From Escherichia coli (GTDB lineage: Bacteria > Pseudomonadota > Gammaproteobacteria > Enterobacterales > Enterobacteriaceae): a DNA stretch of 64,000 bases. Shown piece by piece: positions 25,371 to 64,000 of this stretch. The stretch lies in assembly GCF_044647545.1 (NCBI RefSeq), contig NZ_CP172818.1; one strand, given 5' to 3'. The first letter of the stretch is position 1. Each line of letters begins with the position of its first letter. The notes beneath the pieces are model-generated. The model had not been told where the DNA came from. It saw only the letters and a list, made by a program, of their open reading frames with translations, and did no database searches. Made by a program: the position numbers and the translations under genes.

Positions 25371-27359
25371 CTACTTTTCTTCCAGGTAACTCTCTTCGAA
25401 GATTTCAATAGGGAGTGGGCGAGCAAAAAGGAAGCCCTGGGCAATACCAACGCCCGCTTTTGCCAGCCAGTCGCGTTGTGCTTCAGTCTCCACGCCTTCG
25501 GCAATCATTTGTAAGTTCAGGCTTTGCGCCAACATGATAATTGCAGCAATCATGCTGCTATCTTCCGGCAAGCCTTCAACAAACATTTTGTCGATTTTTA
25601 ACACGTCGATTGGCAACGATTTCATATGCTGCAGCTGACGCAGCCCTGCGTAGCCCATGCCGAAATCATCCAGCGCCACCCGAACGCCGGCATTACGCAA
25701 CGGGCGGAGGATTGCCACCGCTGCATGAGGGTCGTCAATACGTCGGCTTTCTGTCACTTCCAGAATCAGTGTTCCCGGCTGAATGCGATAGCGGGTTAAC
25801 AGTTCCAGCATATCCGCTACCATATTCGGGTGCATCAGTTGCAGCGCTGAGAGGTTTACCGACAAGGGCAACATAATGCCGCGCTCTTGCCAGGCAGCCA
25901 GCAGTCGACAGGACTCTTCCAGCACCCAGTGACCGACGGTAACCATCAGCCCACAGCACTCAATGCGATCGATTAAGCCATCCGGCAGATCCCAACTGCC
26001 ATCCGGTTGCTGGATACGCAGTAACACTTCCGCACTGACCAGTTTACCGCTGGTCATCTCGACCTGTGGCTGTAACCAAATCGCAAACTGATGATTTTCC
26101 AGTGCATTAAGGATATCGCTCTCTTCCGTCAACCGCTGCTGGGCGGCTTCCATCTGCTGCGGATCAAAGAACTGAATCTGATTCTTACCTTTATGGCGAG
26201 CGGTAAATGCCGCAGAAATAGCGCGACTGTAAAGCTGTTCGGCGGTGAGATCGCCGTAGAACATCGCCACGCCAATGCTACAGTGCGGACGGAGTTGAAT
26301 ACGTTCAATCGGCAGGCGCTCGCTCATGATAGTGAGCACTTGCTGACCTAAAGTGATTGCGTGCCACGGTTCCTGTACACCATTGGCAATGACAGCAAAG
26401 TCATAACCACTAATCTGCGCGAGGATCATACGTGGCGACAGTACCGATTTGAGTTTTTCCACCAGCGTCAGCAGCAGAATTTCTCGTTGCGCCTCTTTCA
26501 GCACGCCCGCAGTATCACGCAGGGTTTCACAGGTGATGATCATCAGCGCGGTGGTTTGTTTACGCGCGACAACCTGCTCCAGCATCTCCATCAGCAAGGC
26601 TTTGTTCGGCAAATCCGACACCGGGAAGCGCATCGCGTTTTCGTTCTGTTCTTCATAATGGCGCTGCAGCAATTGCTGGTTGAGGTTGTAACTGCGCACC
26701 AGCATACCGATTTCATCGTCCTGATGCAGACGTGGTAATGCCAGTTGGTAACCAACAAGCTCCTGGGCTGGGATGGCGTTAAGTTCACGAGCAATATTGC
26801 GTAACGGATGCAAAATCAGGCGGTTAATGCACCAGCTAATCGCCACCGTCAATATTAACGACAAAAGTAAGTAAATGGTCACTAACGTTGAGAGGGTGCT
26901 CATCACGAACTTATACATGCGGAAGGAATCCGCCTGTAGCACCAGATAGGCAATTGGCTGCGGGTTTGCCGGACGTTCGAGCGAGTAGACACCCAGCGAG
27001 ATTTGAACCGGTAGCTCAAACAGGCGAGTAACCATTACCGGTAGCGGACGCTCTGGAATAAAACTTTTACGCAGCGCCTGGAACTGGTTAGGCAGCACTA
27101 CATCGGCACGGCTGACCACGCCTGCCGGTTTAATGCTGGCAAGAATAGCTTCCGCTTCGGGAATATCGCCTTTCAAAATGGCAGAAGATAAGGGTTCGCG
27201 GACAGAGCGAGCAATGCTTTCCAGTTGCGTAGCCGTGTTATAGCGATTCTGCTGGACCAGATGGAACAGCAAAACGGTGCAAAAAATAAAAACGAACACC
27301 AGGACAACGGCTGCCACCATTGCCATCTGCTTGATTGTTAACGAGCGACTTACGCGCAA
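25371..27359 (-). CDS. pdeK: Membrane-bound c-di-GMP phosphodiesterase PdeK/YhjK (HAMP-GGDEF-like-EAL), 662 aa
   Basis: N-terminal TM/periplasmic region followed by a degenerate GGDEF domain and an EAL domain, directly upstream of the bcs locus. Confidence 0.88.
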
Positions 27360-27440: not shown

Positions 27441-30400
27441 TTACCAGTCGGCGTAAGGTATCAGCGGCTGCGGCGGTAAATCCATGTCACCCTGCCATCC
27501 GGCGGCGGAATAACGTACGTAGAGCAGGAAATGGCTGGGTGCGTAATCTTTCGCCTGCTGGATATCAATTGCCGTGCCGACAAACCAGTTGGAAGTAACA
27601 CGTCGTTCAAGTAATGCCCGCGCCGTATAGCCGAAGCCCTGACTGCTGCCGCCATCGTTGGATTGCCGCGCAGCTTCTTCCTGCCAGTCGGTCGGGATCA
27701 GATTCATCAGCGGATAACGCGGCATGGTTTTGGTGCGTGAATGCGACCACGAGCCAGACGCCCCCAGCTCCCACGACCAGTTTTCCGTCCGCTCCCGCCA
27801 CATCACCGGTATGGCAAACGACAGGTATTCCTGCGGGCTGTAGTAACCGCCCTGACCAAGTGAGTAGCCACTCAGGTCTTTGTCGTAATGCCAGATCATA
27901 TTGTTAAGACCAATGGTCACACGGCGATTATTCTGGTTGATGATCTTATAGTAATAGCCCGTCATCCAGCGCACGCGCCAGTTATCTTCGACATTTTTAC
28001 CGGTTAACTGGTCACCGCTAAGCGATGCCCAGACGCCGTTTGCTTCACCTTTATCGTAGCTCAGGCTTAGCCCCACGCCGTCGGCACGCACGCCGCCCCA
28101 TTTTTTCCCGGTATTGCTCGGAGAGTCTTTTTGCCCACCAAAGGCCAGCAAAGAACTGGAGATGGGCCGACGGTGGGCGTTAACGGTGTAACCCAGCGGC
28201 CCGATATCATCGCTGTAACTGATGCCGCCAACCACATCCACCACGTTGAAGCCCATCGGCGTGGTACCGATATCCCAGCTCCAGACGTCATTTCGCCAGC
28301 CGACCGCCACGCTGGCACCGGAATCCGACTGGCTGCGGTTGCCGCTACAATCCTGTAATGTACAGGTGCCCCAGTTGTCATCCCATTTACCATCGGCATT
28401 AGTGGAGAAACTGCCGACGTTCATATTGACGAAATCACTGCGAAAGAACATCCGCCCGTCAGAATACGGCGCGTCCACCTGCAACATAGTGGTGTGCGCT
28501 TTCAGATCGGAATAACCACCGGTGCCGCTCGAACCCCAGTAATCATGCTCAAGGGTGACGTTAAGATCCTGCTGGCGATAGAGGTCCGCCGCATCGCTGC
28601 GCACGCCGCGTTTCAGCCAGTCATCTTTCTCGTCGTTACGGGTCAGTCGGGTAAAGGTGTCGTTATCCTGCGGACGCGTCGTGGTCACACCGGATGCGAC
28701 CATCGCGTCTTTGTAGGTTTCCAGCGCCTGCTTTGGATCGCCCGCCTGCGCTTCAAACTTCGCACCGTCGCGCAGCACCATCGCGCTTTCCATCGACGGT
28801 GGCTGAGATTTTGCCTGCGGGATCAACTTATTAAACGTCTGCTGCGCCGCTGCGGTATCGACAAGCTGTGCCTGCACCAGCGCCACGCGCCGCTGAGTGT
28901 TCAGCGAGGCGTTATCGGTGGCGGGAAGTTTCGCCAGTTGACTGCGCGCCGCGGCTTTGTCGCCTGCGGCAATATCCACTTCCGTCAGGCCAAGAATGGC
29001 ATCGGCGTTATTCGACTCCCGCGCCAGCACATTCTGATACGCCGTGCGGGCGGCGGTGTAATCGCGTCGCTGTTGTGCCCAGTCAGCCAGCGTAAGATCA
29101 ATGCGCGTGGAAGGCGGTTGCTGGCGTAGCATCGCCTCCGCATCCTGTTCTTTGCCACTGTCACGCAGGCGATTAGCCGTTTCCAGAATCTGATCGCTTT
29201 GCAGTCGATTAACCAGCTCCTGAATATTGCTGTTCCATTGCGCGCGCGGCAGGCTGTTGATATGCGCCAGCGCCGCTCTGTCCTGGTCATGACCAGAGAG
29301 ATACAGCCCGTAAGCGTAAACCTGCTCCGGGTCGTTCGGCTTCTGCTGTGCCAGATTGCGCATTAATGTATCAGCCTGGCTGCGTTGTCCGGCCTGCCAG
29401 AGATCCTGCGAAAGTCGGTAAGTAATCCATACGCTGCCGGGATCCAGCGCCAGTCGTTGCCGCTGAAGTGCTGCCGCCTGCGCCCATTTGCCCTGGTTTT
29501 CCAGTGCCTCTGCCTGCTGTGCCAGACGGTCGTTTTGTAGGCTGCGTTCGATATCATCAATGCTACGCCGCTGACTGGCAGAGAGCGAGGCGATAAACGC
29601 TTCAGCTTTTTCTGGCGATTGCTGGCGGTAAATATTCGCCAGCCCGCGCACGGCGTTAGTGTTGCCGCTGTCCATACGCAGGGTCTGCTGATAATAGCGT
29701 TCAGCGGCGGGGTAATCTTTGCGCGCCATCGCCACATCGCCCAGCCCCAGCACTGCATAGCTGTCGGTGTTATCGACATTACGCGCCTGCTGGAACAGGC
29801 GTTCTGCCCGGTCAGGATTATTGGCTTTCAGCGCAGCATCGCCCTGCTGGATCGCCAGCCAGTAGCGGTTTACTTTCAGCAGACTGTTCCATTTGTCGTT
29901 GTTGCTGCTGTGCGGATCCAGTGCGAGGGCTTTTTCCAGATTCGCCACCGCATTGGCGCGATCGCCTTTCTGAGAATACGCCTGGCCCAGCGCCCCCAGA
30001 GCCTCACTGTCTTTCGGGTTCGCCCGCACCGCCTGTTGTAGTTCGGGAATGGCTTTACCCGCCATGCCAGAGTCCACCGCCGCTAAACCTTGCGCACGAG
30101 CGCGGAAAGCAGGGTCGGCCAGCTGTTTTTGCTGTTCTGCCAGTTGCGATTGCGCAGCCGCTACGCTATCGCCATCGCTAAAGATCGAGAGATATTTTTT
30201 CAGTGCCTGAACGCTGGCATCGCTGACGGGCATGTCTTTAATCTGCCCGTACCAGATTTTAGAGGCCCCCTCGCGTCCGGCGTTCGATTTCGCCATTTGT
30301 TCCAGAACGGCAAAACCTTCGTCACGGCGATCGCTACTAAACAGTAATAGCGCCAGATTGTTTTGCAGGCCCGTGTTGCCCGGCGTATCCGCATTAATGC

Positions 30401-30914
30401 GTTTTAGCTGATTAATCGCTTCGCCACGGCGGGCCGGAATTTTCGCCACCGTACTCCAGTACTCGACAGCAATGTCACCTTCCGGCGGCGCACCGTTGAA
30501 CAGTTTGTTGTAACTCGCCACAGCTTCTTCCGCATGACCGGTAGTTGCCTGCAATCTTGCCTGTTGCAGTGCCTGACGACCATCCGGCGTGGAAAGCAGC
30601 ATCGTAGTCCGCGACGATTTATACGCATTTGAACTCGGCGCTAACTGCGACAGCCGATCGAGCTGTTTTTGTGCGCCATCAATATCGCCCTGACGTAACA
30701 GAGAACGAAAACGGGCGGCAACGACGTCCGGGTTATTCGGATCAATAAGTTCCAGACGATACAACGACTGTTGCACCAGGTCTTCACGATGGGTCGCTTC
30801 GCCTAACCGAACTTGCTCCAGCAACTGTTGCTGAGCGGTTGGTGCTGCCTCGACCATCGGCATGACGGCCAGACCGAGGGAAAGCGTGAATATGTTTAGT
30901 GTGAATTTGCGCAT
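27441..30914 (-). CDS. bcsC: Cellulose synthase subunit C (TPR-rich periplasmic domain plus outer-membrane beta-barrel), 1157 aa
   Basis: 1157-aa ORF with signal peptide, multiple TPR repeats and a C-terminal barrel; last gene of bcsRQABZC. Confidence 0.93.
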
Positions 30915-32002
30915 TCCTGGCCCCAGTCAGGTAATAACTCACCTTTTGTCGAGAAGCGGAAACGGTGTTGATCCCAGCCTTGTCCAAACAGGGTCAGCAC
31001 ATAGTTGTAATAGGCATCGCTGCCGGGAAAGTTATCGGCCACGCGCTGGCGCTGAACGGCCTGTGCATCGCGGTTTTGTAAAAAGGGCAGCATGGCGGCA
31101 GAAAAACCGACCGGTCCTTTACCCTGCGCTTTCCCCGTAGCCACATCCACTTTTTCTGGCGGATAGCCGTTTTTCTCGGTGAATGTCGCCATCGGTTTAA
31201 ACCGGTTGAGCATCCGCGCTTTTTGCGGATCGCTGTCAGGCATCATGCCTACCCACATGTAAACGCGGATCGCGTCGTAGCTGCTGATCAATGTTTTTTC
31301 GGCTTTTAGCTGCCAGCCTTTGTCTTTCTCATAGCGCACCCAGTCTGGCGAAAAGCCTTTCGGGGCGGTTTCCAGCAATAAACGTTGATTGGTTTCGCGC
31401 AGCGTAGTCCACGGCGCGCCAAAGCGGGTGAAATACTGCGCCAGCGTCGGCGGCAGGTAGCTGGGGTTAAAACGCCAGCTGTTATCCTCTGCAAATCCCA
31501 CTTTGCCCGGCAACAACATGGAACCCAGCCCAGGCACCGTCACCACTTCCTCCCGCGCAATACGTTTTAACAACGCGCTGCCAATGTCGGTATAACGCTG
31601 CTCTTTCCACAAACGCCCCGCCTCCAGCAACGACCAGGCCATCCAGACATCACCATCGGAGGCCGAATTGCTGTCCAGCACTTCCCACTTACTGTTCTCT
31701 TTCTTGCCCCACAGCCATGCGGGCAAACGTTCTTTTAAAGAACCCTGAGCGAGATTGTTCTGCGTCCAGTCGAGAATATTATCGAAAGCTGCACGGTCGT
31801 TAGCCGCCAGGGCAAAGAACATGCCGTAACTTTGCCCTTCGGAAGTGGTGATTTTACGCGCGTCACTTGGGTCAATGACGCGCCCTTCCTGACTGATGTA
31901 ATCCTTTTTGAACTGCTCCCAGGCAGGCCAGTTGCAGGCTGCCTGAACACTAAAGGCAGCCAGCAGCAGCATCGTCACGAGTCCACTACGCAACACATTC
32001 AT
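30896..32002 (-). CDS. bcsZ: Endo-1,4-beta-glucanase BcsZ (GH8), 368 aa
   Basis: ORF 30896..32008 begins at TTG; trimmed to the ATG at 32000-32002 ([22 protein letters not shown]). The 3' end overlaps the bcsC start by 19 bp. Confidence 0.92.
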
Positions 32003-32008
32003 CTTCAA

Positions 32009-34348
32009 TTACTCGTTATCCGGGTTAAGACGACGACGGCTGATAATACGCAGCAAACGCCACAGTACCCATGCCAGCAGCACGACGCTGATTGCCGCCA
32101 GCACCGCCAGCAGAATCGGATGGTTTGCCAGGGCATACCATAAGCGTTCGAACCACGGCAGATGGCCAACGTAATAGACGTCGCCAACGCGTAGGCTATT
32201 GATACCGGACTCGCGGATCACCGCGACCGAACCGAACATGGTGGCGCGTTTGCCGCTATCGTTCACCGCATCGTTAAGCATTTCATAACCGCGTGGGCTA
32301 TCTGCCAGCAGCGCAATCACGCTACGCTGGTCGTTATACGGCGACTGGAAGCCAATCACCGCTGCCATCGCACCGGAAGAGGTCAGCGTTGACTGAGTTT
32401 CTGCCGCGCGATCGCTCTCGTCCGGTACAATGCCGGGGAACGGGGTCTGGCGCATCGGCGTTTTCACCCAGCTTTCGGTCGCCTGCACCAACAGATCGAT
32501 CTGCTTATCGTCTTTCAGTTTGTCCGGGATACCACCGACGATCATGATGTCGGCATCTTTGCCCTGAATGGTGCTGCCATCATCGGTCACCGTCAGGTTA
32601 ATCGCCGGGAAGCCCGTCTGCGCACCGATAAAGCCAACGGTATTCAGCAAGGTTTCCATCTGTGCTTCGTTAGGCGCTTTCGGCATCACGGTGATGGTTT
32701 GTGACAGATCCGCCATCCGGCTGAACGGGAAGCCCGCGTTAGCAAAGGCGCGTAGATCCGGCATCGGAATGAAGTGGTAATACTTCGAGAAGTCGATGGT
32801 GGAATCATCACCAATCACCACATGATTCTGCACCGGCTGGAAGGTAATGCAGTTATCCACCGAACCGCCCGGCATCGGGTTCATATACTCAAAGTCAAAG
32901 CGCAGCTGGTTGGTCGCGCCCAGTTTCAGCGCCGGAATAGAGACATCCGTTTTGCCATCCAGCAAACCTTGTAATACCGGAATCCGCAGCAGCAGGCGGT
33001 TCGCCTCCTGTTTACTGCTCAGGTTGAAGGATTGCAGGAACTGGTTATTCAGGCTGATATCCATCCGCGAACTGTCTTTCACCGGCGGCATGGTGTAGCG
33101 ATAGTTGATATCCATATCAATGCCGGTACTGCGCATCAGGTAGAGATCCGGCGGCAGATTTAGCGAAACGTTAATCGCTGCTGGCTCAAGACCGCTGGAT
33201 TGTAACTGTTCTTCATAGGTTTTCAGTTCACCAAAGGTGACCGGACGATCGGTACGCACCCAGTTCGGCGCATCGTACGGCTTACGCGGTAGCAGCGGTT
33301 TCACTTCATTCACTACCACGCTTTCACCACGGAACAGAATGTTACCCTGAGCGATACCTTTCGCTGCCTGCAACAGGTCTTTGTCGTCACGACCAAACAC
33401 CACCAGCAGTTTGACGTAAGGATTCTGCGGATGGTTGATCATCTCAATCACCGGGGCTTTTACCGCCGGATGATCGTGCAGGAAGTCCGGGCGTTTGTCA
33501 TTAGTGGCAAAAACAATGGCATTGCGATTCGGCAGTTGGTTATAGAGCACCGGGAAATTCTGCCCACGCCAGCCAGAACGCGAACCAAACCACGAGGCGA
33601 CAATAGCTGATGCTTGTTGCAATCCAGTATCTGGCGTACCCGCAAAGACCATCGGCAAGGTGTTGGTGCGGTTATCACGCGGGTCAAAGAATGGTACCGG
33701 GAAGTGTGACAGGTCATTCTTCACATTCAGGGTCTGATAGGTCAAATCCAGTCCACTGCTCCGCCCAACATCCAGCCAAAGCGTGGTGCTGGCCGGGTTT
33801 TCGCACACGTCCTGATAATGGCCGACAAACTCCAGCCGCACACGGTTGAAGTCGGTAATAAACAGTGGGTTAATGGGCATTTGCGCCAGCGTTTTTTTAC
33901 CCAACTGTTCTTTGGTCACTGGCAGCACGCCCATCAGCTCATCATTGAGATAAACCTTTAACTGCGACTGGACAGGCAGTAACGATGGCGATGGCGTGTA
34001 TTCGAGGTTGAGCATCGCCTTCGTCACCACTTCATCGCTGCGCATACCAAACTCAATGCTGCCGTTCGGGTTAATGCCACGTAGCACCATGCTGCCCGGC
34101 GGCGGCGCGATTTGCGCAAAGGTCAGCTTCACATCACGCGAAGGACCGTTCTGCGCCACGATGGGGGCATCAGCGCCCTGCACGCCTGGCATCACTTGCC
34201 CCACCTGCGGATTTTGTTCCGTCTGGGCGGCTACAGCTGGCTCAGCATTGATCAGTGGTTGCGTTGCTGGCGTCGCCTGCGTCATGAAAGAGGGGAACGC
34301 ACTCATCCCCATAGCCACTGCACAAATCCAGAATAGTTTTCTTTTCAT
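32009..34348 (-). CDS. bcsB: Cellulose synthase periplasmic subunit BcsB (779 aa)
   Basis: ORF 32009..34435 trimmed to MKRKLFWICAVAMGMSAF at 34346-34348. Confidence 0.93.
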   Translation of the reverse strand: MKRKLFWICAVAMGMSAFPSFMTQATPATQPLINAEPAVAAQTEQNPQVGQVMPGVQGADAPIVAQNGPSRDVKLTFAQIAPPPGSMVLRGINPNGSIEFGMRSDEVVTKAMLNLEYTPSPSLLPVQSQLKVYLNDELMGVLPVTKEQLGKKTLAQMPINPLFITDFNRVRLEFVGHYQDVCENPASTTLWLDVGRSSGLDLTYQTLNVKNDLSHFPVPFFDPRDNRTNTLPMVFAGTPDTGLQQASAIVASWFGSRSGWRGQNFPVLYNQLPNRNAIVFATNDKRPDFLHDHPAVKAPVIEMINHPQNPYVKLLVVFGRDDKDLLQAAKGIAQGNILFRGESVVVNEVKPLLPRKPYDAPNWVRTDRPVTFGELKTYEEQLQSSGLEPAAINVSLNLPPDLYLMRSTGIDMDINYRYTMPPVKDSSRMDISLNNQFLQSFNLSSKQEANRLLLRIPVLQGLLDGKTDVSIPALKLGATNQLRFDFEYMNPMPGGSVDNCITFQPVQNHVVIGDDSTIDFSKYYHFIPMPDLRAFANAGFPFSRMADLSQTITVMPKAPNEAQMETLLNTVGFIGAQTGFPAINLTVTDDGSTIQGKDADIMIVGGIPDKLKDDKQIDLLVQATESWVKTPMRQTPFPGIVPDESDRAAETQSTLTSSGAMAAVIGFQSPYNDQRSVIALLADSPRGYEMLNDAVNDSGKRATMFGSVAVIRESGINSLRVGDVYYVGHLPWFERLWYALANHPILLAVLAAISVVLLAWVLWRLLRIISRRRLNPDNE

Positions 34349-34358
34349 CGCGTTATCA

Positions 34359-36977
34359 TCATTGTTGAGCCAAAGCCTGATCCGATGGTTGTGCCGTTTC
34401 GCTCCGCTCCGGGCGGCGCGGAATAAACGATACAACCCAGGAAACCAGAGAAGTCAGCACACGGAATATGCCCTTCACCGAAGAAGGCGCAAACTCCGCC
34501 AGATGGCGGTAGCCACGGAAGCCGAGCTTCAGAATATCCAGCAGACTTTCCAGCGGCTTATCTTCCGGATAGCTGTCCTGCCAGAGCGCCCATGTATCCG
34601 CACGGGCAAACGTACACTGCACAAAATCGATATGTTGCTGGGTGGTGAGCGGCATTAATTTCAGCCCAACTTCATTACCCATCACGCGCGCCACCTGGGT
34701 CGGGAAGACGTATTCCTGCTGACCGCGTTTAAGCAACAGATTCACTTTCTGCCCTTCCAGAATCTGCGCCTGACCGTTGATCTTGATCCCCAAACCACCG
34801 TCGGAGAAATCCTGAACGGTACACGAGAAGAGGTGACCATCTTCGCGGGCAATTGCCGCGGGCATCGTCATCTCCACGCGGTGCGATCGGCGTACCTGTT
34901 TGCTTTCTACCGATACCGCAACTGCGCCGCCAAGAACAATCAGGTTGTAGAATACCCACACCATACTGACGACCACGGTGAGCATCTCGGTTGGCGGGCC
35001 ATAGAAGTAGCGCCAGATGCCTACCGCAACGCCCACCAGGTTGAGCAGAACAAGGAAGATGTAGGGCCGCGAGATCACCCAGTCGACGTACTCTTCTTCC
35101 ACCAGTCCACCTTTGGCGGTGACGTTAAATTTGCCTTTGTGCGGGTTAATCAGCGCCACCAGCGTCGGTGGTGCGATATACCACGCCAGCACCGTTTCGT
35201 AGATTTCACTCCAGAAAGAGTGGCGATATTTGCCCTGGATCTTCGAGTTGGTCAGGCTGGCATGAATCATATGCGGCAGCACGAACAGGGCGATCATCAA
35301 CGCTGGCGCATAGATGATGTAGGCATGCAGCAGCAGGAACGCCAGCGGCGCAGTCAGGAAGATCAGTCGTGGAATGCCCGACAAGAAGTGGAACATGGCG
35401 TTGACATAGCACAGCCGCTGAGCAAACTTCAGCCCTTTACCGGTGAGCGGGTTATCGAGACGGAAGATTTGCACCATCCCGCGCGCCCAGCGAATACGCT
35501 GACCGATATGCGCCGACAGACTTTCGGTCGCCAGCCCCGCCGCCTGCGGAATACGCATATATGCAGAGGTGTAGCCACGACGGTGCAAACGCAGAGAAGT
35601 ATGCGCATCTTCGGTTACCGTTTCGACAGCAATGCCGCCAATCTCATCCAGCGGCTTACGGCGAATCACCGCACATGAACCGCAGAAGAAGGTGGCGTCC
35701 CACATATCGTTGCCATCCTGCACCAGACCATAGAACAGCGTACCTTCGTTCGGTGTTTTACGGAAACGTCCCAGGTTGCGTTCAAACGGGTCCGGTGAGA
35801 AGAAGTGGTGCGGCGTCTGCATCATCGCCAGTTGTTTTTCTTTCAGGAACCAGCCCATGGTCATTTGCAGGAACGATCGCGTTGGTACGTGGTCGCAGTC
35901 GAAAATCGACACGAACTCGCCTTTGGCATATTTCAGCGCATTGTTGATGTTGCCCGCTTTCGCATGTTCATGAGTGGTACGGGCGATATATTTCACCCCC
36001 ACGTTTTGCGCAAACTGGCGAAACTCTTCCCTGCCGCCGTCATCAAGGATCCAAATGTTCAGCTTGTCTTTCGGCCAGTCGATACCCAGCGAGGCGTAAA
36101 TCGTATTTTTCACCACGTTGAGATCTTCGTTGTAAGTCGGGACAAAGATATCCACCGACGGCCACAGCGACATATCTTTCGGCAATGGCACCGGCTGACG
36201 ATTCAGCGGCCATACCACCTGGAAGTAACCGAGCACCAGCACAATCCACGCGTACGTTTCGGCGAACAGCAGAATAAGCCCGCACACCAGGCTGACCGGA
36301 TCGTCCCAGTTCAGCGTAGAGGTGTAGCGCCACCAGATATAACGGCAAGAAACGGTCAGCGACAGCACAATCAACATTAGCGCCGAGAAGCGCCCCGGCA
36401 TCCGCCGTACGATCAGCGCTACACCCCACAGCAGCATCAGGAAGATAAACTGCGCCAGCGGGTTAAACGGCTGGGTAACGCAGATTAACGCCAGAATCAG
36501 CGAGAAGGTGACGATGATACCGAGGATCAACCGCCGCGCCCCGGCGCTCAAATGGCCGAGTTCTTTTTTCTCATCGAGATGCTGTGTTTTATGGCTAACG
36601 CGCTCAGGCAGCTCGTTCATCCATTGATGGTAACGTCCACGAATATTCTGCAGACCTGAAAATGTCCGCCTGCGCGGTTTCGGCGTTTCTTTGCGCGATG
36701 TACCGATCAGTAACCAGCATGTTTGAATGAGATAACGGACCGGGTCCAGCGGACGCGGACGCGAGGCGTTGATATGCGGATACAGGTTTTTATGTTCTGC
36801 GCGAATACGCTGCCAGCGCGGGTGCTCCAGCGGAATAAAAATCCAGGCCAGGATCAACCAAAAACAGCCGAGCGTCGCGCTGAAAGCCGACGCACCGTGA
36901 CGACGATAATCGCGATAACGCCCGATAAGCCGCGCGTTGACCGGCGGGATAAGCAACCACCGGGTCAGGATACTCAT
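34359..36977 (-). CDS. bcsA: Cellulose synthase catalytic subunit BcsA (GT2 plus PilZ), 872 aa
   Basis: ORF 34359..37025 trimmed to MSILTRWLLIPPVNARL at 36975-36977. GT2 motifs (DDG, DCDH, QRIRWARG) and a C-terminal PilZ region are visible. Confidence 0.95.
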   Translation of the reverse strand: MSILTRWLLIPPVNARLIGRYRDYRRHGASAFSATLGCFWLILAWIFIPLEHPRWQRIRAEHKNLYPHINASRPRPLDPVRYLIQTCWLLIGTSRKETPKPRRRTFSGLQNIRGRYHQWMNELPERVSHKTQHLDEKKELGHLSAGARRLILGIIVTFSLILALICVTQPFNPLAQFIFLMLLWGVALIVRRMPGRFSALMLIVLSLTVSCRYIWWRYTSTLNWDDPVSLVCGLILLFAETYAWIVLVLGYFQVVWPLNRQPVPLPKDMSLWPSVDIFVPTYNEDLNVVKNTIYASLGIDWPKDKLNIWILDDGGREEFRQFAQNVGVKYIARTTHEHAKAGNINNALKYAKGEFVSIFDCDHVPTRSFLQMTMGWFLKEKQLAMMQTPHHFFSPDPFERNLGRFRKTPNEGTLFYGLVQDGNDMWDATFFCGSCAVIRRKPLDEIGGIAVETVTEDAHTSLRLHRRGYTSAYMRIPQAAGLATESLSAHIGQRIRWARGMVQIFRLDNPLTGKGLKFAQRLCYVNAMFHFLSGIPRLIFLTAPLAFLLLHAYIIYAPALMIALFVLPHMIHASLTNSKIQGKYRHSFWSEIYETVLAWYIAPPTLVALINPHKGKFNVTAKGGLVEEEYVDWVISRPYIFLVLLNLVGVAVGIWRYFYGPPTEMLTVVVSMVWVFYNLIVLGGAVAVSVESKQVRRSHRVEMTMPAAIAREDGHLFSCTVQDFSDGGLGIKINGQAQILEGQKVNLLLKRGQQEYVFPTQVARVMGNEVGLKLMPLTTQQHIDFVQCTFARADTWALWQDSYPEDKPLESLLDILKLGFRGYRHLAEFAPSSVKGIFRVLTSLVSWVVSFIPRRPERSETAQPSDQALAQQ

Positions 36978-37726
36978 GATGCACTCCCGACTGGCGTTTT
37001 CAGCCCGGAATAGTTCAACAGGCACCAGTTAGCCAGCGTCAGTATCTCTTCAGCCGCCAGCGCATCACTGCGGTATTCACCGACTGGTTGCTTAGCCGCC
37101 AGGCATTGAGCCATCGCTTCATCACGATGAATGAGTATTGGCAGTAATCGGCGCTGGCTTTGCAACCAAAGCTGGTAAATATCGTCCTGAACCTGACTGC
37201 CGATACGGAAGTCATTAATCAAAATATGCGCGCCATCCGGCAGCGCTTGCTGATGCAGTCGGATATGGCAGTTGGCATCCACATTGACGATTGCCAGCGA
37301 GTGATCGCACAAACTCAGCAGCTGGTGGGTTATCTGTGAGGCATCACGCGGTAAGTCAATTAAAATCCACTGGTAACGCCCGCTGGCTTTTAGTTGCTGT
37401 AAGCCGGAGCAAATATCGCTCAGCCGGGTTTGCCAGTGCTGTGGATTTTCTTGTTCTTCAATGGATAACTGACCAAAAGGCAGCAAATCGAGCTGCGAGG
37501 TATAGCGCAACCCGGCGTCACGCCAGTCCTGGCCATCCAGCATAGCTCTGGCCCAGCCCTGACGGTGGGTAAAATCAACGTTAAATGACAGGCGCAACAA
37601 GTTGTCCGGGCAGGCATCGACCACCAGGACATTTTCTCCCAACATTTGTAATGACCAGGCTAATGCGGCGGTGATGGTTGTTGTCCCCACGCCTCCCCGC
37701 ACCCCCTGCAATCCCAGTACGGCCAT
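36974..37726 (-). CDS. bcsQ: BcsQ (YhjQ), MinD/ParA-family ATPase of the cellulose secretion system; intact 250-aa frame
   Basis: Uninterrupted 250-codon ORF MAVLGLQGVRGGVGTT... (Walker-A-like). The stop overlaps the bcsA ATG by 4 bp (ATGA). Codon 6 is TTG (Leu). Confidence 0.9.
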   Translation of the reverse strand: MAVLGLQGVRGGVGTTTITAALAWSLQMLGENVLVVDACPDNLLRLSFNVDFTHRQGWARAMLDGQDWRDAGLRYTSQLDLLPFGQLSIEEQENPQHWQTRLSDICSGLQQLKASGRYQWILIDLPRDASQITHQLLSLCDHSLAIVNVDANCHIRLHQQALPDGAHILINDFRIGSQVQDDIYQLWLQSQRRLLPILIHRDEAMAQCLAAKQPVGEYRSDALAAEEILTLANWCLLNYSGLKTPVGSAS

Positions 37727-37737
37727 TCACCAATCCC

Positions 37738-37926
37738 CTACTTTTGTTGCGCAAACTCTGCCAGCAACGGCCAGCGTTTTAATGCCGCGGCCAACTGTTC
37801 GCGTTGGGAAATATCGGCATAATCAATATCAGGCAGTGAAAATGCCTGCTTTAACGCCAAAATATCATTCTGGAAGATATAGCCTATCGCGGGATCAGGC
37901 AGAGTATCTGGTTCATTGTTATTCAT
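37738..37926 (-). CDS. bcsR: BcsR (YhjR), small cellulose-biosynthesis regulator (62 aa)
   Basis: ORF 37738..37968 trimmed to MNNNEPDTLPDPAIGYIF at 37924-37926; 11 bp upstream of bcsQ. Confidence 0.85.
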   Translation of the reverse strand: MNNNEPDTLPDPAIGYIFQNDILALKQAFSLPDIDYADISQREQLAAALKRWPLLAEFAQQK

Positions 37927-38197: not shown

Positions 38198-39769
38198 ATG
38201 AGGGACATTGTGGACCCTGTATTCTCTATCGGTATCTCATCATTATGGGATGAGCTGCGACATATGCCAGCAGGCGGCGTCTGGTGGTTTAACGTCGATC
38301 GCCATGAAGATGCTATCAGTCTGGCGAATCAAACAATTGCATCCCAGGCTGAAACCGCACACGTCGCGGTCATTAGCATGGACAGCGATCCAGCGAAAAT
38401 CTTTCAATTAGATGATTCTCAAGGGCCGGGAAAAATAACATTATTTTCAATGCTAAATCATGAAAAAGGTCTATACTATTTGGCCCGTGATTTGCAGTGT
38501 TCTATTGATCCCCATAATTACCTTTTTATTCTTGTTTGCGCAAATAACGCATGGCAAAACATTCCTGCCGAGCGGCTTCGCTCATGGTTGGATAAAATGA
38601 ATAAATGGAGCCGGCTAAACCATTGTTCGCTTTTGGTAATTAATTCCGGAAATAATAACGATAAACAATTTTCATTGTTACTTGAGGAATACCGTTCACT
38701 TTTTGGTCTTGCCAGTTTGCGTTTTCAGGGCGACCAACATTTGCTGGATATTGCTTTCTGGTGCAACGAAAAAGGGGTCAGCGCCCGTCAGCAGCTTAGC
38801 GTTCAGCAACAAAATGGTTGCTGGACATTAGTTCAACACCAAGAGGCGGAAATCCAACCACGCAGCGACGAAAAACGCATTCTGAGTAATGTTTCTGTAC
38901 TTGAAGGTGCGCCGCCGCTATCGGAACACTGGCAACTGTTCAACAATAACGAAGTCCTGTTTAATGAAGCCCGTACCGCTCAGGCGGCGACGGTGGTCTT
39001 TTCTTTACAACAAAATGCGCAAATCGAGCCACTGGCCCGCAGCATTCATACTCTGCGTCGCCAGCGCGGTAGTGCGATGAAAATCCTCGTACGGGAAAAT
39101 ACCGCTAGCCTGCGCGCCACCGATGAACGTTTGTTATTGGCCTGCGGTGCAAATATGGTTATCCCATGGAATGCCCCACTCTCCCGCTGTCTGACGATGA
39201 TCGAAAGCGTGCAAGGGCAGAAGTTTAGTCGCTATGTGCCGGAAGATATCACTACCTTGCTGTCAATGACCCAGCCGCTCAAACTGCGTGGTTTCCAGAA
39301 GTGGGATGTGTTCTGTAATGCCGTCAACAACATGATGAATAACCCTCTATTACCTGCCCACGGTAAAGGCGTTCTGGTTGCCCTACGTCCGGTACCGGGT
39401 ATCCGCGTTGAGCAAGCCCTGACGCTATGTCGCCCTAATCGCACCGGCGATATCATGACCATTGGCGGTAATCGGCTGGTGCTGTTTCTCTCATTCTGTC
39501 GGATTAACGATCTGGATACCGCGTTGAATCATATTTTCCCATTGCCTACTGGCGACATTTTCTCAAACCGTATGGTCTGGTTTGAAGATGATCAAATCAG
39601 TGCCGAGCTGGTGCAGATGCGCCTGCTTGCCCCAGAACAATGGGGCATGCCGCTGCCTTTAACGCAAAGTTCTAAACCGGTCATCAATGCCGAGCACGAT
39701 GGTCGCCACTGGCGACGAATACCAGAACCAATGCGACTGTTAGATGATGCTGTGGAGCGCTCATCATGA
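38198..39769 (+). CDS. bcsE: BcsE (YhjS), c-di-GMP-binding GIL-domain protein (523 aa)
   Basis: 523-aa ORF divergent from bcsR; first gene of bcsEFG. Confidence 0.92.
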
Positions 39770-39957
39770 TGACCATCAGCGATATCATTGAAATTATTGT
39801 CGTTTGCGCACTGATATTTTTCCCGCTGGGCTATCTGGCGCGGCACTCTTTGCGACGCATTCGCGACACCTTACGTTTGTTCTTTGCTAAACCTCGTTAT
39901 GTTAAACCGGCCGGGACGTTACGCCGCACGGAAAAAGCCAGGGCAACCAAAAAATGA
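39766..39957 (+). CDS. bcsF: BcsF (YhjT), small single-TM membrane protein (63 aa)
   Basis: 63-aa ORF with hydrophobic N-terminus; overlaps the bcsE stop (ATGA) and the bcsG start. Confidence 0.85.
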
Positions 39958-41633
39958 CTCAATTTACGCAAAATACCGCCATGCCTTCTTCCCTCTGGCA
40001 ATACTGGCGCGGCCTTTCCGGCTGGAACTTCTATTTTCTGGTTAAGTTCGGCCTGTTGTGGGCGGGATATCTTAACTTCCATCCGCTCCTCAATCTGGTG
40101 TTTGCCGCGTTTCTGCTGATGCCCATTCCGCGCTACAGCCTGCATCGCTTACGCCACTGGATTGCCCTGCCGATCGGCTTTGCTTTGTTCTGGCATGACA
40201 CCTGGTTGCCTGGCCCGGAAAGCATAATGAGCCAGGGTTCGCAGGTGGCGGGGTTCAGTACCGATTATTTAATCGACCTTGTCACACGCTTTATTAACTG
40301 GCAGATGATTGGGGCCATTTTTGTTTTATTAGTGGCCTGGTTATTCCTGTCACAATGGATTCGCATTACCGTTTTTGTGGTTGCCATTCTGCTATGGCTG
40401 AACGTACTTACCCTGGCGGGACCAAGTTTCTCCTTGTGGCCAGCCGGTCAACCAACGACCACTGTAACAACGACGGGTGGTAACGCAGCGGCAACCGTTG
40501 CGGCGACGGGTGGCGCACCGGTAGTGGGTGATATGCCCGCACAAACTGCACCGCCAACAACGGCGAACCTTAACGCCTGGCTGAATAATTTCTATAACGC
40601 GGAGGCGAAACGTAAATCAATCTTCCCGTCTTCGCTGCCCGCTGATGCTCAGCCATTTGAACTACTGGTGATTAATATCTGTTCGCTTTCCTGGTCGGAT
40701 ATTGAAGCCGCCGGGTTGATGTCGCATCCGCTGTGGTCGCATTTCGATATTGAGTTCAAGAACTTTAACTCCGCCACCTCCTACAGTGGCCCGGCGGCGA
40801 TCCGTTTACTGCGCGCCAGCTGCGGGCAGACTTCGCACACTAATCTGTATCAACCGGCAAATAACGACTGCTATCTGTTTGATAACCTGTCGAAACTGGG
40901 CTTTACCCAGCACCTGATGATGGGACATAACGGCCAGTTCGGCGGTTTTTTGAAAGAAGTTCGCGAAAATGGCGGCATGCAGACCGAATTGATGGATCAA
41001 ACAAATCTGCCGGTTGTTTTGCTGGGCTTTGATGGTTCGCCGGTTTATGACGATACCGCCGTGCTTAACCGCTGGCTGGACGTTACCGAAAAAGATAAAA
41101 ACAGCCGTAGTGCCACGTTCTACAACACGCTTCCACTGCATGACGGCAACCATTATCCGGGCGTCAGCAAAACAGCGGATTACAAAGCGAGGGCGCAGAA
41201 ATTCTTTGATGAACTGGACGCCTTCTTTACTGAACTGGAGAAATCGGGTCGTAAAGTGATGGTGGTCGTGGTGCCAGAACACGGCGGCGCGCTGAAGGGC
41301 GACAGAATGCAGGTATCTGGCCTACGTGATATCCCTAGCCCGTCTATCACAGACGTCCCCGTTGGGGTGAAATTCTTCGGCATGAAGGCACCACATCAGG
41401 GGGCACCGATTGTCATCGACCAACCGAGCAGCTTCCTGGCTATCTCCGATCTGGTGGTTCGCGTTCTTGATGGCAAGATTTTCTCCGAAGACAATGTTGA
41501 CTGGAAAAAACTCACCAGTGGGTTGCCACAAACAGCACCGGTCTCCGAGAACTCAAATGCAGTAGTTATTCAATACCAGGATAAACCGTACGTTCGCCTG
41601 AACGGCGGCGACTGGGTGCCTTACCCGCAATAA
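39954..41633 (+). CDS. bcsG: BcsG (YhjU), membrane phosphoethanolamine transferase modifying cellulose (559 aa)
   Basis: 559 aa with N-terminal TM segments and a C-terminal alkaline-phosphatase-superfamily domain. Confidence 0.92.
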
Positions 41634-41643
41634 GAACGAAAAA

Positions 41644-41669
41644 GGCCGCAGAGTTTCCCCCTGCGGCCT
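41644..41669. terminator. Bidirectional hairpin between convergent bcsG and ldrD
   Basis: ggccgcag-agtttccccc-tgcggcc, flanked by an A-run upstream and a T-containing tail downstream. Confidence 0.55.
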
Positions 41670-41718
41670 GATCCGGGCGCAAATTGCCATTACGGCAGCC
41701 TGACGCCCACATGACACG

Positions 41719-41826
41719 TTACTTCCGCTTATTCAGCCAGTTCACGATCAGACTGGCAAGAATGCCAGCAATGACCGGAGCCGCTAAATCATGCCAGAAG
41801 GCCATGCCCAGCTCTGCGAGCGTCAT
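41719..41826 (-). CDS. ldrD: LdrD, type I toxin peptide (35 aa)
   Basis: C-terminal 35 codons of ORF 41719..41994 read MTLAELGMAFWHDLAAPVIAGILASLIVNWLNKRK, the Ldr peptide family; ATG at 41824-41826. Confidence 0.85.
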   Translation of the reverse strand: MTLAELGMAFWHDLAAPVIAGILASLIVNWLNKRK

Positions 41827-41875
41827 ATAGCCGCCTGAGTTGTAATGACAACGTTTCGCGGCTATTCTTGAGTGG

Positions 41876-41941
41876 TCTAGAGTCAAGATTAGCCCCCGTG
41901 ATGTTGTCAGGTGCATACCTGCAACGTGCGGGGGTTTTCTC
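41876..41941 (+). ncRNA. rdlD: RdlD antisense RNA (type I antitoxin of ldrD); approximate coordinates
   Basis: Plus-strand segment opposite the ldrD leader ending in hairpin cccccg...cgggggttttct; position inferred from the known ldr/rdl arrangement, ends not verified. Confidence 0.5.
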
Positions 41942-42301
41942 TCTCCAGCAACCAATGCCACCAGGGATAAAGCCCCCGCAACATTGCGCCTCACCGGAAC
42001 CTTTCCGGCTTGCCACTGATTCTACGATTGCTTTTTACCGTCAGCACCCGGCAATCTTCCTCATTGCGTGATGCATTCCAGCTTAATTTCTTTATTTGCA
42101 ATAGTTGCAGTTCATATCCGGGCTGACTCCAGACTGGTAGTGAAATGCGCATTTTTGTAGAATTGCGCCTCCTCGCGACCTCCCCAGTGAATCTGTTGCC
42201 TCATTTTTTACATACTGCGTATTCGACTTCTCCACCTGTTGCGCAAGAGAAACTGGGTTTATTCATTTTTGCGAGGCCGACTTCTTTCTGGACAGGACTT
42301 T

Positions 42302-43602: not shown

Positions 43603-44607
43603 TTAACGCTGCGGATTTTCATCCTGATCAACAGCAAAACAAGCTACCAGTTGACCGCCGTAGTCTTTTAGCTGCGGCTGCAACTGGGTGCAGGGGCCGA
43701 AGCGCCGACGACAGCGGGCGTTAAACGCGCAGCCCGGCGGTGGATTGAGCGGGCTTGGCAGTTCACCGGTGAGCTTGATGCGCTCGCGGCGATCGTCCGG
43801 GTTCAGGCGCGGCGTCGCGGAGAGTAGCGCCTGAGTGTACGGATGACGCGGGTTATTGAAGATTTGGTCCTTCGTTCCCTTCTCCACGCAGCGGCCCAGG
43901 TACATCACCATCACTTCATCGGCAATGTGCTCAACCACTGACAGGTCGTGGGAGATAAAGACATAAGACAGCCCCAACTCCTGCTGCAAATCCATCATCA
44001 GGTTGAGCACCTGCGCACGCACTGAGACGTCCAGCGCGGAAACCGGCTCATCGGCAATCACCACATCCGGGTCGAGCATCAGACCACGGGCAATGGCGAT
44101 ACGCTGACGCTGACCGCCGGAGAACATATGCGGATAGCGGTCGTAATGCTCGGTTTTCAGGCCGACTTTCGCCATCATCGACAGGGCTTTTTCCCGACGC
44201 TGATCTTTGCTTAAGCTGGTATTAATAAGCAGCGGCTCTTCAAGAATTTGCCCAACTTTTTTACGCGGATTTAGCGAACCATAGGGATTCTGAAAGACGA
44301 TCTGGATTTTCTGCCGACGCAACTTCTGCGCCTGCGGATCGTGCTTGAGCAGATCCTGCCCCTGGTAATACAGCTCACCACCGGTGGGCGTTTCGATCAT
44401 CGTCAGTAACCGACCGAGGGTCGATTTACCGCAGCCAGATTCACCTACTACTGCCAGCGTTTTGCCACGTTCAAGGTTAAACGAAACGCCGTCCAGCGCC
44501 TTCACCAGACGTTCCGGCGCGAACATACCTTTCTTCACCGGATAATGTTTTTTCAGGTCGATAGCCTGCAACAGCGGTTGTTGCGAGGTGGCCTCTTGCG
44601 TACTCAT
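43603..44607 (-). CDS. dppF: Dipeptide ABC transporter ATP-binding protein DppF (334 aa)
   Basis: Walker [10 protein letters not shown] and the ABC signature are visible; last gene of dppABCDF. Confidence 0.95.
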
Positions 44608-45587
44608 AGTGTCGGCCTCCCGGCATCATCAAGTGGGTAGTGGCATTTGGACTGACGCCCGTCAGCGAGCATATTCAGCGCCGGTTCTTCAGCGCGGCAT
44701 TTGTCAGTGGCGTAGGGGCAGCGCGGGTTAAGCAGGCAGCCGTTCGGACGGTCATACTTGCCGGGAACAACACCTGGCAACGACGCCAGACGTTCTTTAT
44801 CCTGAGCAAATTCCGGCAGCGCACGCAGCAATGCCTGAGTATACGGGTGACGCGGCGCATGGAAGATGGCGTGCGCATCGCCCGTTTCTACTACCTGGCC
44901 TGCATACATCACGATAATTTTATGTGCCGCTTCCGCCACCAGCGCCAGGTCATGGGTAATTAACACCAGCGCCATGTTCTCTTTCTGCTGTAGCTCCAGC
45001 AGCAGTTCGATGATTTGCGCCTGAATGGTCACGTCCAGCGCGGTGGTCGGTTCATCGGCAATCAGCAGTTTTGGCCGACAGGCAATCGCTATGGCGATCA
45101 TCACGCGCTGGCTCATGCCGCCGGAAAGCTGATGCGGGTAAACATCCAGACGCGATGCCGGATCGGGAATACCGACCTGATTCAGCAGGTCAATCGCCCG
45201 CTGACGGCGGGTACTTTTGTTGCCGCCCTGATGCACCTTAATCGCTTCCATAATCTGGAAACCCACGGTGTAGCACGGGTTAAGGCTGGTCATCGGGTCC
45301 TGGAAGATCATCGCCACTTCGGCACCCACCAGGTTGCGGCGCTCTTTTTCTGAGATACGCTGTAAATCCTGACCGTTAAACTCCAGCTTTTCCGCCATTA
45401 CGCGGCCCGGATAATCAATCAGCCCCATAATCGCCAGCGAACTGACCGATTTACCAGAGCCGGACTCACCCACAATCCCGACCACTTCGCCCTGTTTTAC
45501 GCTGTAGCTGATGCGGTCTACGGCGCGGAACGGTGCGCTTTCGTCGCCGAAATGCACCGATAATTTATCTACATTTAATAACGCCAT
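44604..45587 (-). CDS. dppD: Dipeptide ABC transporter ATP-binding protein DppD (327 aa)
   Basis: Walker A GESGSGKS; stop overlaps the dppF start by 4 bp. Confidence 0.95.
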
Positions 45588-45597
45588 CTCGAACCTC

Positions 45598-46500
45598 TTA
45601 CTGCTTCAGTTTGGGATCGAGCGCGTCACGCAGACCGTCACCCATCAGGTTAAATGCCAGCACCGTCAGCAGTATCGCCAGACCCGGGAAGGTCACGACC
45701 CACCAGGCGCTTTGCGCAAACTGCAACACGTCGGAGAGCATAGTGCCCCACTCCGGTGTTGGCGGCTGAGCCCCCATGCCGAGGAAACCAAGAGCAGCCA
45801 TATCGAGAATGGCGTTAGAGAAACCGAGCGACGCCTGAACAATCAGCGGCGCAAGGCAGTTCGGGAAGATGTTAATAAACATCTGGCGCATTGCCCCGGC
45901 ACCCGCCACGCGAGACGCGGTGACGTAATCGCGGTTAACTTCCACCAGCACGGCGGCGCGGGTTAAGCGCACATAATGCGGCAGCGCAACGAAGGTTAGC
46001 GCCAGCGCGGCGTTACCAATCGACGGGCCGAAAATCGCCACCAGCACCAGTGCCAGCAGTAGACTTGGCAGCGCCAGCATGATATCGACCACGCGCATGA
46101 TGATGTTATCGACCAGACCGCCAAAGTAACCAGCGATCAGGCCGAGAATAACGCCCATAATCAGCGATAACACCACTACCAGACAGCCAACCAGCAGCGA
46201 CAAGCGCGCGCCGTACATCAGCCGCGACAGCACATCACGCCCCACGTCATCAGTGCCCAGCAAGTGCGCCATGCTGCCGCCTTCCTGCCAGGCTGGCGGG
46301 GCGAGCAGTGCATCGCGGAACTGTTCCGCCGGGTTATAGGGTGCAATCCAGTTGGCAAAGATCGCGATAAACAGCACGATGACGACGTAAACCAGCCCGA
46401 CAACCGCGCCTTTGTTGCGTTTAAAATAGTGCCAGAACTCCTGTAACGGGGTCATCGGCACCGGTGCGCTAATCACTTTATTTTCAGTAACCTGTGACAT
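45598..46500 (-). CDS. dppC: Dipeptide ABC transporter permease DppC (300 aa)
   Basis: ABC permease of 300 aa within the dpp operon. Confidence 0.95.
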
Positions 46501-49287: not shown

Positions 49288-49860
49288 TATTCTGCTCCAA
49301 TTGTGATGTTTGTTGTTTTAACCCTTTGCAGTGGGTTGTCGCCGCCTGACCTTTTTTGTTTTTTGCCCGGTCGGGTCAACGTTATGAGGTGGGGATGCCG
49401 TACTAATTAACATCAGTGTAACAGTGCGGATCCTCCAGAAAATGCCCCTCGTGACCTACAATCTGTCAACAGAATGTGAAAACGTCAATACAGCCAACCG
49501 GGATTTACACCAACGGTGAGAATCAACAAACAAAGATTAAAAAAACTTCAAACAGCTATTTGCAGCAGAGAAATTTGTGCTACGCCAACACAACCAGAAC
49601 AATCAGCTTAATATTTAGCAACATTTGGTGATTAAGTTTTATGCATTTAATGAAAAAAATCTGAGGTAAAGGTGGATATCTGAGCGATTAATACCATGAA
49701 CGCTAAAACGCACAGGGGAAAATGCCAGCGCCAGCCATAAGTAACGCAAAAAAAGATTTAAGCAAATATAAAAAAAGACAATGGTTTCTGTCACAAATCC
49801 GTTAATGGATAGTGAGATATGGGGCGCAAATTTGGCAGGGAAATGTGTGGTGTGTAGATC

Positions 49861-49937
49861 GGATAAGGCGGTCGCGCCGCATCCGACAATGGGCCGGTAC
49901 ATTTGCCTGATGCGACGCTGACGCGCCTTATCAGGCC
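49861..49937. repeat. REP/BIME cluster upstream of dppA
   Basis: ggataaggcggtcgcgccgcatccgac and gcctgatgcgacgctgacgcgccttatcaggcc are REP-type palindromic units. Confidence 0.7.
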
Positions 49938-50149
49938 TGCATCGAGTCGAACCTCCTTGTCCCCCGATAAGACCGGTATTTCAATCACCACATGAGACTT
50001 CAGACGCATACAAGCTCTGCATCAATTAGCATGCTAATTTCGCCTTTGCAGTGACAGCTGATATACACGTGCTTCTGGCCAGCCCTGCGGCCTTTAACAG
50101 GTCAGACTGGCAGTGTCCGCACCTCAGGTTCTGGATGACTTTCGCTTTT

Positions 50150-50690: not shown

Positions 50691-50697
50691 GGCGCGT

Positions 50698-50727
50698 CTT
50701 ATCAGGCCTACGTCGAATCGAACCTCC
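50698..50727. repeat. 30-bp REP-like direct repeat, 27/30 identical to 49927-49956, bracketing the anomalous block
   Basis: cttatcaggcctacgtcgaatcgaacctcc versus cttatcaggcctgcatcgagtcgaacctcc at 49927-49956. Confidence 0.6.
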
Positions 50728-50765
50728 CCGCCCCCGGGGGTTCTCTTCCTCATGAGCTACAGATG

Positions 50766-50797
50766 CAAAAAAGCCTGCTCGTTGAGCAGGCTTTTCG
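50766..50797 (-). terminator. proK rho-independent terminator
   Basis: Hairpin gcctgctc-gttg-agcaggc immediately 3' of the tRNA on the minus strand, followed by a short T-run on that strand. Confidence 0.65.
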
Positions 50798-50801
50798 AAT
50801 T

Positions 50802-50878
<77 letters not shown>

Positions 50879-62788: not shown

Positions 62789-62867
62789 TCCCAGCCTCCT
62801 GTGTTGATTTCCACCGAGTATGTACTGCACCCATTTTGTTGGACGATGAAATGGAATAGCCCCTGAT

Positions 62868-63389
62868 ATGTCAAAGCCAAAATACCCTTTTGAAAAGCGC
62901 CTTGAAGTCGTGAATCACTACTTCACTACTGATGATGGTTACAGGATCATCTCGGCACGTTTTGGTGTCCCCCGAACCCAGGTCAGGACATGGGTTGCCC
63001 TCTATGAAAAACATGGAGAAAAAGGTTTAATTCCCAAACCTAAAGGTGTTAGTGCTGATCCAGAGTTGCGTATTAAGGTCGTGAAAGCTGTGATCGAGCA
63101 GCACATGTCCCTTAATCAGGCTGCTGCTCACTTTATGCTTGCTGGTAGTGGTTCTGTAGCCAGGTGGCTGAAGGTTTATGAAGAGCGCGGAGAAGCTGGT
63201 TTACGCGCGCTCAAGATTGGCACCAAAAGAAACATTGCAATATCAGTTGATCCAGAAAAAGCGGCATCAGCATTGGAGCTGTCAAAAGACCGACGTATTG
63301 AGGATCTTGAAAGGCAAGTTCGATTTCTTGAAACGCGGCTTATGTATCTAAAAAAGCTGAAAGCCTTAGCTCATCCCACGAAAAAGTGA
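62868..63389 (+). CDS. insJ: IS150 OrfA / InsJ, HTH DNA-binding transposase subunit (173 aa)
   Basis: 173-aa ORF MSKPKYPFEKRLEVVNHYF... with IS3-family OrfA HTH and leucine-zipper region. Confidence 0.92.
   Translation: MSKPKYPFEKRLEVVNHYFTTDDGYRIISARFGVPRTQVRTWVALYEKHGEKGLIPKPKGVSADPELRIKVVKAVIEQHMSLNQAAAHFMLAGSGSVARWLKVYEERGEAGLRALKIGTKRNIAISVDPEKAASALELSKDRRIEDLERQVRFLETRLMYLKKLKALAHPTKK
63350..63356 (+). other. Programmed -1 ribosomal frameshift slippery heptamer A_AAA_AAG of IS150
   Basis: ctaAAAAAAGctg near the end of orfA; the -1 frame is open from upstream of this site and continues into the DDE transposase. Confidence 0.75.
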
Positions 63390-64000
63390 AAGTACTCAAC
63401 GAGCTAAGGCAGTTTTATCCTCTTGATGAGCTTCTCAGGGCTGCGGAGATACCGCGCAGTACGTTTTATTACCATCTAAAGGCTCTCAGCAAGCCTGACA
63501 AGTATGCGGACGTTAAAAAGCGTATTGGTGAGATTTATCACGAGAATAGAGGCCGATACGGATACCGTAGGGTAACGCTGTCTCTTCATCGAGAAGGGAA
63601 ACAGATTAACCATAAAGCTGTTCAGCGCCTGATGGGAACCCTCTCACTTAAAGCAGCGATTAAGGTCAAGCGATACCGCTCTTACAGAGGAGAGGTAGGG
63701 CAAACCGCCCCTAATGTTCTCCAAAGAGATTTCAAGGCTACGCGGCCAAACGAGAAGTGGGTTACCGATGTTACTGAATTTGCAGTCAATGGGCGCAAGC
63801 TGTATTTGTCTCCAGTAATAGATCTCTTCAACAACGAAGTTATTTCTTACAGCCTTTCGGAAAGACCAGTGATGAACATGGTTGAGAATATGCTCGATCA
63901 GGCATTCAAAAAGCTTAATCCTCACGAGCATCCTGTTCTGCACTCTGACCAGGGATGGCAGTATCGTATGAGAAAATATCAAAATATTCTTAAAGAACAT
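63386..64000 (+). CDS. insK: IS150 OrfB / InsK, DDE transposase catalytic domain (partial, continues beyond window)
   Basis: Manual translation in the -1 frame gives [33 protein letters not shown]...KWVTDVTEF...HSDQGWQY with no stop before the window end; absent from the ORF track because the stop lies outside. Confidence 0.85.

Follow-up and report, generated by a model that had tools for sequence, protein, structure and literature searches.

The bcs locus and its bcsQ gene

The 64,000-nucleotide stretch of Escherichia coli DNA analysed here (contig NZ_CP172818.1 of assembly GCF_044647545.1; hereafter the window) carries the genes of the bcs cellulose secretion system, among them bcsQ, whose reading frame is our subject. 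bcsQ lies at 36974..37726 on the minus strand, where the list of open reading frames (ORFs) with its translations, NCBIfam models and a structure alignment identify an intact ORF of 250 codons. It starts with ATG, its minus-strand 5' end reads ATG GCC GTA CTG GGA TTG CAG, and the 250-residue product in the ORF list, MAVLGLQGVRGGVGTTT...VGSAS*, contains no internal stops; a longer excerpt of the translation, MAVLGLQGVRGGVGTTTITAALAWSLQ...KTPVGSAS*, is likewise uninterrupted. Codon 6, at 37709..37711 on the minus strand, is TTG (Leu); the single base that sets it apart from the K-12 codon is at window position 37710. At the other end of the gene, the stop codon TGA (36976-36974) is overlapped by the bcsA start codon ATG (36977-36975), which gives an ATGA overlap at 36974..36977 (minus strand) that, from its sequence and coordinates, we read as a translational-coupling junction. 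An earlier note on this DNA had described an uninterrupted bcsQ of 250 codons that has TTG at codon 6 and runs into an ATGA overlap with bcsA, and the ORF list, translation and junction coordinates bear this out in each respect. Because a 250-codon open frame would be expected by chance with a probability of only (61/64)^250, or ~6e-6, the frame is not accidental.

The product of this frame aligns with the NCBIfam equivalog NF007460 at 540 bits (cutoff 399), residues 1-250 falling on model positions 1-250, and with TIGR03371 at 292.7 bits (cutoff 157.85). When aligned with chain A of 6YBU, 246/250 residues are identical, end to end over residues 1-250 (E = 3e-167), and the same count, also end to end, is found with 6YAR, a solved E. 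coli BcsQ. The gene lies between bcsR and bcsA in a bcsRQABZC operon, which is the context that characterizes the family. Judged by these models, alignments and gene order, the product is in every testable respect a member of the BcsQ family, the MinD/ParA-like SIMIBI NTPases of cellulose secretion systems. We infer from its near-identity to the characterized protein that it would bind ATP and dimerize, and that it would be needed for cellulose secretion.

Each bcs gene, together with the adjoining pdeK, was compared with its K-12 counterpart (MG1655, NC_000913.3 positions 3680000-3725000) for length, stops, and insertions or deletions (indels). We found that pdeK, bcsC, bcsZ, bcsB, bcsA, bcsQ, bcsR, bcsE, bcsF and bcsG all have the K-12 length and a proper start and stop, and in this gene-by-gene comparison no internal stops or indels were found in pdeK or the nine bcs genes, in keeping with the earlier statement that bcsRQABZC and bcsEFG are all full length. 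Each protein differs from its K-12 counterpart by 0 to 16 amino-acid substitutions, and for each of the nine Bcs proteins the full-length match scores above the curated NCBIfam cutoff. The nine genes of a cellulose secretion locus, bcsRQABZC and the divergent bcsEFG, are present, collinear and uninterrupted. A hidden frameshift or stop elsewhere in the bcs genes was considered as well, but none was found, all genes being collinear with K-12 at identical length.

The individual genes, all intact by the K-12 comparison and NCBIfam, are arranged as follows. Upstream of bcsQ on the minus strand is bcsR (yhjR; 37738..37926), which encodes 62 residues with one difference from K-12 and scores 75.8 bits with NF040717. 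Downstream on the same strand are bcsA (34359..36977), which encodes the 872-residue catalytic subunit of cellulose synthase with three differences from K-12 and a score of 1792.8 bits with NF008558 over residues 1-872; bcsB (32009..34348; 779 residues); bcsZ, the endoglucanase gene (30896..32002; 368 residues); and bcsC, which encodes the outer-membrane channel (27441..30914; 1157 residues). pdeK (yhjK/hmsP; 25371..27359, minus strand) adjoins this operon and encodes a cyclic di-GMP (c-di-GMP) phosphodiesterase, a role taken from the literature (PMC7397504). On the plus strand, the divergent operon begins with bcsE (38198..39769; 523 residues) and continues with bcsF (39766..39957), whose 63-residue product is identical to that of K-12, and bcsG (39954..41633), which encodes a 559-residue phosphoethanolamine transferase.

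Codon 6 and the origin of the allele

Over 121 alignment columns at the 5' end of bcsQ, the sole difference between the window and MG1655 is codon 6, TTG versus TAG (*6L), and NC_000913.3 annotates the MG1655 gene (b3534) as a pseudogene. The earlier note had given TAG for this codon in K-12, and rightly so: the alignment and the annotation are joined by three papers that report the stop (PMC5944007, PMC7397504, PMC5014196). Over the whole gene, the window and MG1655 differ at 16 nucleotides, 15 of them besides the codon-6 base. The lesion has been described as "TTG/TAG (17 T > A)" and dated to the common ancestor of K-12 (PMC5944007). K-12 is cellulose-negative owing to this stop (PMC5944007, PMC5014196), which abolishes cellulose either because BcsQ is missing or because the stop is polar on the genes that follow (PMC5944007). 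When the stop is repaired, cellulose production is regained (PMC5944007), as in AR3110, a cellulose-proficient W3110 in which bcsQ codon 6 has been changed from TAG to TTG (PMC7397504, PMC5014196).

The frequency of the two alleles was assessed in complete E. coli genomes with an exact 57-mer centred on the bcsQ single-nucleotide polymorphism (SNP), in TTG and TAG versions. The TTG version was found in 3,552 complete genomes and the TAG version in 349, while ~1,340 genomes with other SNPs inside the 57-mer were assigned to neither allele. Among the matches listed, all TAG carriers (60/60) look like K-12 laboratory derivatives; they include MG1655 sublines, C600, J53, DH5alpha, DH1, HMS174, RV308 and NCM3722. 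An intact bcsQ is the normal state of E. coli, and K-12 stands apart as an exception, through a nonsense allele already documented as a product of domestication.

The closest relatives of the window are natural isolates. The 16,263 bp bounded by the stop codons of pdeK and bcsG show no mismatches to FDAARGOS_497 (NZ_CP033850.1) or to IMT16316 (NZ_CP023815.1), two isolates of sequence type 648 (ST648). In the bcsQ region, identity is 100% to natural isolates, among them a strain named ST648, IMT16316, ECONIH1, MS6198 and FDAARGOS_497. Window positions 1-22000 are 99.9% identical to most of those genomes, including MS6198, ECONIH1 and Ecol_881, and almost all 1-kb bins from 21 to 62 kb are 100% identical to FDAARGOS_497. 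Identity to MG1655, by comparison, is ~97.3% over ~42 kb, with BLAST alignments of 25.9 kb at 97.38% and of 13.3 kb at 97.16%.

Taken together, these data argue that the bcsQ of the window is most probably an ordinary wild-type allele in a natural, non-K-12, ST648-like E. coli, in which the TTG at codon 6 would be ancestral and the TAG of K-12 a nonsense mutation specific to the laboratory lineage; we put the probability of this reading at roughly 0.96. A non-K-12 strain had been among the explanations proposed earlier, and it is the one that the ~2.7% divergence from MG1655 and the identity to natural isolates favor. The intact bcsQ seemed odd because a wild strain was being compared with a domesticated reference.

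None of the observations contradicts the wild-type interpretation. The exact full window is absent from the 5,426 complete E. coli genomes searched, and the best matches, at 99.9-100% over most of its length, show structural differences at the ldr repeats, the dppA-proK spacer and IS150. The best-ranked complete genomes reach 99.1-99.2% identity at 97% coverage over 40000-64000, where most 1-kb bins are at 100% to ST648-like genomes, interrupted by the structural differences. The background of the source strain appears ST648-like, an assignment that rests on locus identity rather than on multilocus sequence typing (MLST), whose seven genes should, by their map positions, lie outside the 64-kb window.

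Cellulose competence and alternative origins

PMC5944007, citing Le Quere and Ghigo (2009), describes BcsQ as a MinD/ParA-like ATPase working with BcsR and essential to the E. coli cellulose secretion system. The literature has both BcsQ and BcsR required for assembly of the cellulose secretion machine. In the window, ribosomes would traverse the open bcsQ and arrive at bcsA by way of the ATGA overlap; neither the loss of BcsQ nor the polar loss of bcsABZC expression proposed for K-12 would be expected to arise. Because bcsRQABZC, bcsEFG and pdeK are all intact, the locus, as judged from its gene content, is structurally capable of phosphoethanolamine-cellulose production, and cellulose-dependent biofilm phenotypes are possible in the source strain. 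Actual output would depend on RpoS, CsgD, DgcC and the c-di-GMP level.

It could still be that the locus is intact and the strain cellulose-negative, blocked by regulation or by a missense change. We consider this rather unlikely, although several observations count against moving from an intact locus to a producing strain. The regulators csgD, dgcC and rpoS lie beyond the 64-kb window; BL21 and H10407 have complete bcs genes, with calcofluor signal and cellulose undetected (PMC5944007); and PCV16316, which shares its chromosome with IMT16316, no longer made cellulose once cured of its plasmid (PMC4794485). IMT16316 itself, whose pdeK-to-bcsG stretch is identical to that of the window, is reported to have formed both cellulose and curli when plated at 28 C with Congo red (PMC4794485). 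Judged from IMT16316, the missense changes in these bcs alleles are compatible with function, with expression depending on the genetic background; an intact bcs locus is necessary but insufficient for cellulose. The earlier judgement that the locus appears cellulose-competent is upheld at the level of the locus, where all genes are full length, but does not carry over to the strain, given the negative results with BL21, H10407 and the plasmid-cured ST648 strain.

A second alternative concerns the origin of the DNA: it could come from a K-12 derivative with a repaired bcsQ (TAG to TTG, as in AR3110), or from K-12 into which P1 transduction has brought a wild-type bcsQ. Strains of this kind are known (PMC7397504, PMC5014196), and the window shares the gene order and the IS150-hokA junction of K-12. 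On these shared features rested the earlier view that the window is otherwise K-12-like. IS150 does indeed lie next to hokA, and its junction lines up collinearly with the MG1655 counterpart. Among the 5,426 complete E. coli genomes, however, 1,653 covered at least 80% of a 241-base probe for this junction, and these include many clinical and animal isolates and many strains outside K-12. The junction therefore does not discriminate K-12 from other E. coli and was rejected as a sign of K-12 ancestry; the shared gene order is no K-12 marker either. It follows that a difference from the K-12 reference should not be taken for a property of the query.

If the window belonged to K-12, one would expect TAG at codon 6 and near-100% identity to MG1655 across the region, and we found neither. 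Identity per 1-kb bin ranges from 93.3 to 99.2%, except in one repeat-rich spacer, so that no bin reaches 99.3%, and the ~2.7% of positions that differ are spread along 42 kb. Together with the 16 differences in bcsQ and the widespread IS150-hokA junction, this overturns the premise of a K-12-like window, and without that premise no contrast is left to explain. Two stretches stand out as divergence peaks against a background of ~97.5%: the bcsC interior at 28742-29741 (93.3% to K-12) and the eptB-yhjX region at 52742-54741 (~94%). The bcsC changes are clustered, 11 of the 16 falling at residues 576-728, which we take to be the tetratricopeptide repeat region. Both peaks would fit a mosaic left by ordinary recombination between phylogroups.

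A point-repaired, AR3110-like K-12 is excluded by the 2.7% divergence, and the 15 bcsQ differences beyond the codon-6 base, the identity of the locus to natural isolates and the presence of the IS150-hokA junction in 1,653 genomes argue against any K-12 derivative. A P1 transduction fragment, which may be up to ~100 kb, could in principle span the whole 64-kb window, but nothing supports or suggests that a K-12 strain acquired over 64 kb of ST648 DNA in this way. We regard a repaired or transduced K-12, which the earlier note had also raised in the form of a repaired derivative, as extremely improbable. The idea that K-12 too has TTG at codon 6, and that the note was mistaken about the K-12 allele, is wrong, as NC_000913.3 reads TAG with b3534 a pseudogene, the exact TAG 57-mer occurs in 349 complete genomes, and the stop is explicit in PMC5944007, PMC7397504 and PMC5014196.

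Neighboring features and comparison with known systems

The IS150 element lies outside the bcs system, at 62821..64000 on the plus strand, where it is cut by the end of the window; it was placed by aligning its junction with that of K-12. hokA, beside it, is at ~62630-62790. The element has the exact K-12 junction and orientation and is 99.2% identical to the K-12 copy, its far junction falling past the window end. In FDAARGOS_497, the flanking DNA is 100% identical and the IS150 by hokA is inverted relative to the window and K-12 (44037-45711 of the compared stretch), with an insertion point that, in aligned coordinates, is apparently offset by ~40 bp. Recurrent independent insertion into a hokA/sokA hot spot, or exchange of the segment between lineages, is a tentative explanation for this difference.

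Two further structural differences lie between the bcs genes and IS150. Positions 41636-42036 hold a single unit of an ldr toxin and its rdlD antisense RNA (Rfam rdlD at 41875-41940), whereas four ldr copies stand in tandem at this place in IMT16316 and FDAARGOS_497. The difference would lie in the copy number of this type I toxin-antitoxin repeat, or may come from repeat collapse in the source assembly. FDAARGOS_497 also has an IS3-family element between dppA and proK that is absent from the window (49920-50040 and 50001-51000). The dppA-proK spacer is the least conserved stretch of the window, at 84% with 12 gaps to K-12 and 85% to FDAARGOS_497, and Rfam places a naRNA4/REP-type element in it at 49857-49937; a short segment inside the spacer is duplicated when K-12 is taken as the reference. 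When the entire window was scanned for Rfam families and tRNA genes, the hits were the cspA 5' untranslated region, GadY, ES205, rdlD, naRNA4 and tRNA-Pro(CGG), and no unexpected RNA elements were found in these scans.

The intact bcsQ allele is already known, being present in RefSeq as WP_000279524.1 in identical loci, and it brings nothing new. Wild-type E. coli BcsQ (YhjQ; strain 1094, known from the BcsRQ complexes PDB 6YBU, 6YAR and 6YB3) likewise has 250 residues, and it shares with the window the N-terminal GVRGGVGTTT P-loop region and a gene that is flanked by bcsR and bcsA and overlaps the latter through ATGA. The protein of the window departs from the crystallized one by four substitutions (D172 for N, I197 for M, Q207 for E and A249 for K), none of which, judged from the alignment, is in the N-terminal nucleotide-binding loop.

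The bcsQ pseudogene of K-12 (b3534; MG1655, W3110) has the same locus and length at 97.88% nucleotide identity, and besides codon 6 its protein differs from that of the window only at M197I and E207Q. AR3110 carries the same sense allele at codon 6 as the window (PMC7397504) but is otherwise K-12, whereas the window is ~2.7% divergent from K-12 throughout. The ST648 isolates IMT16316 and FDAARGOS_497 come closest: their bcs locus is identical to that of the window, their bcsQ is annotated in RefSeq as an intact coding sequence under the accession given above, and the remaining, identical genes of the locus are annotated as intact coding sequences too.

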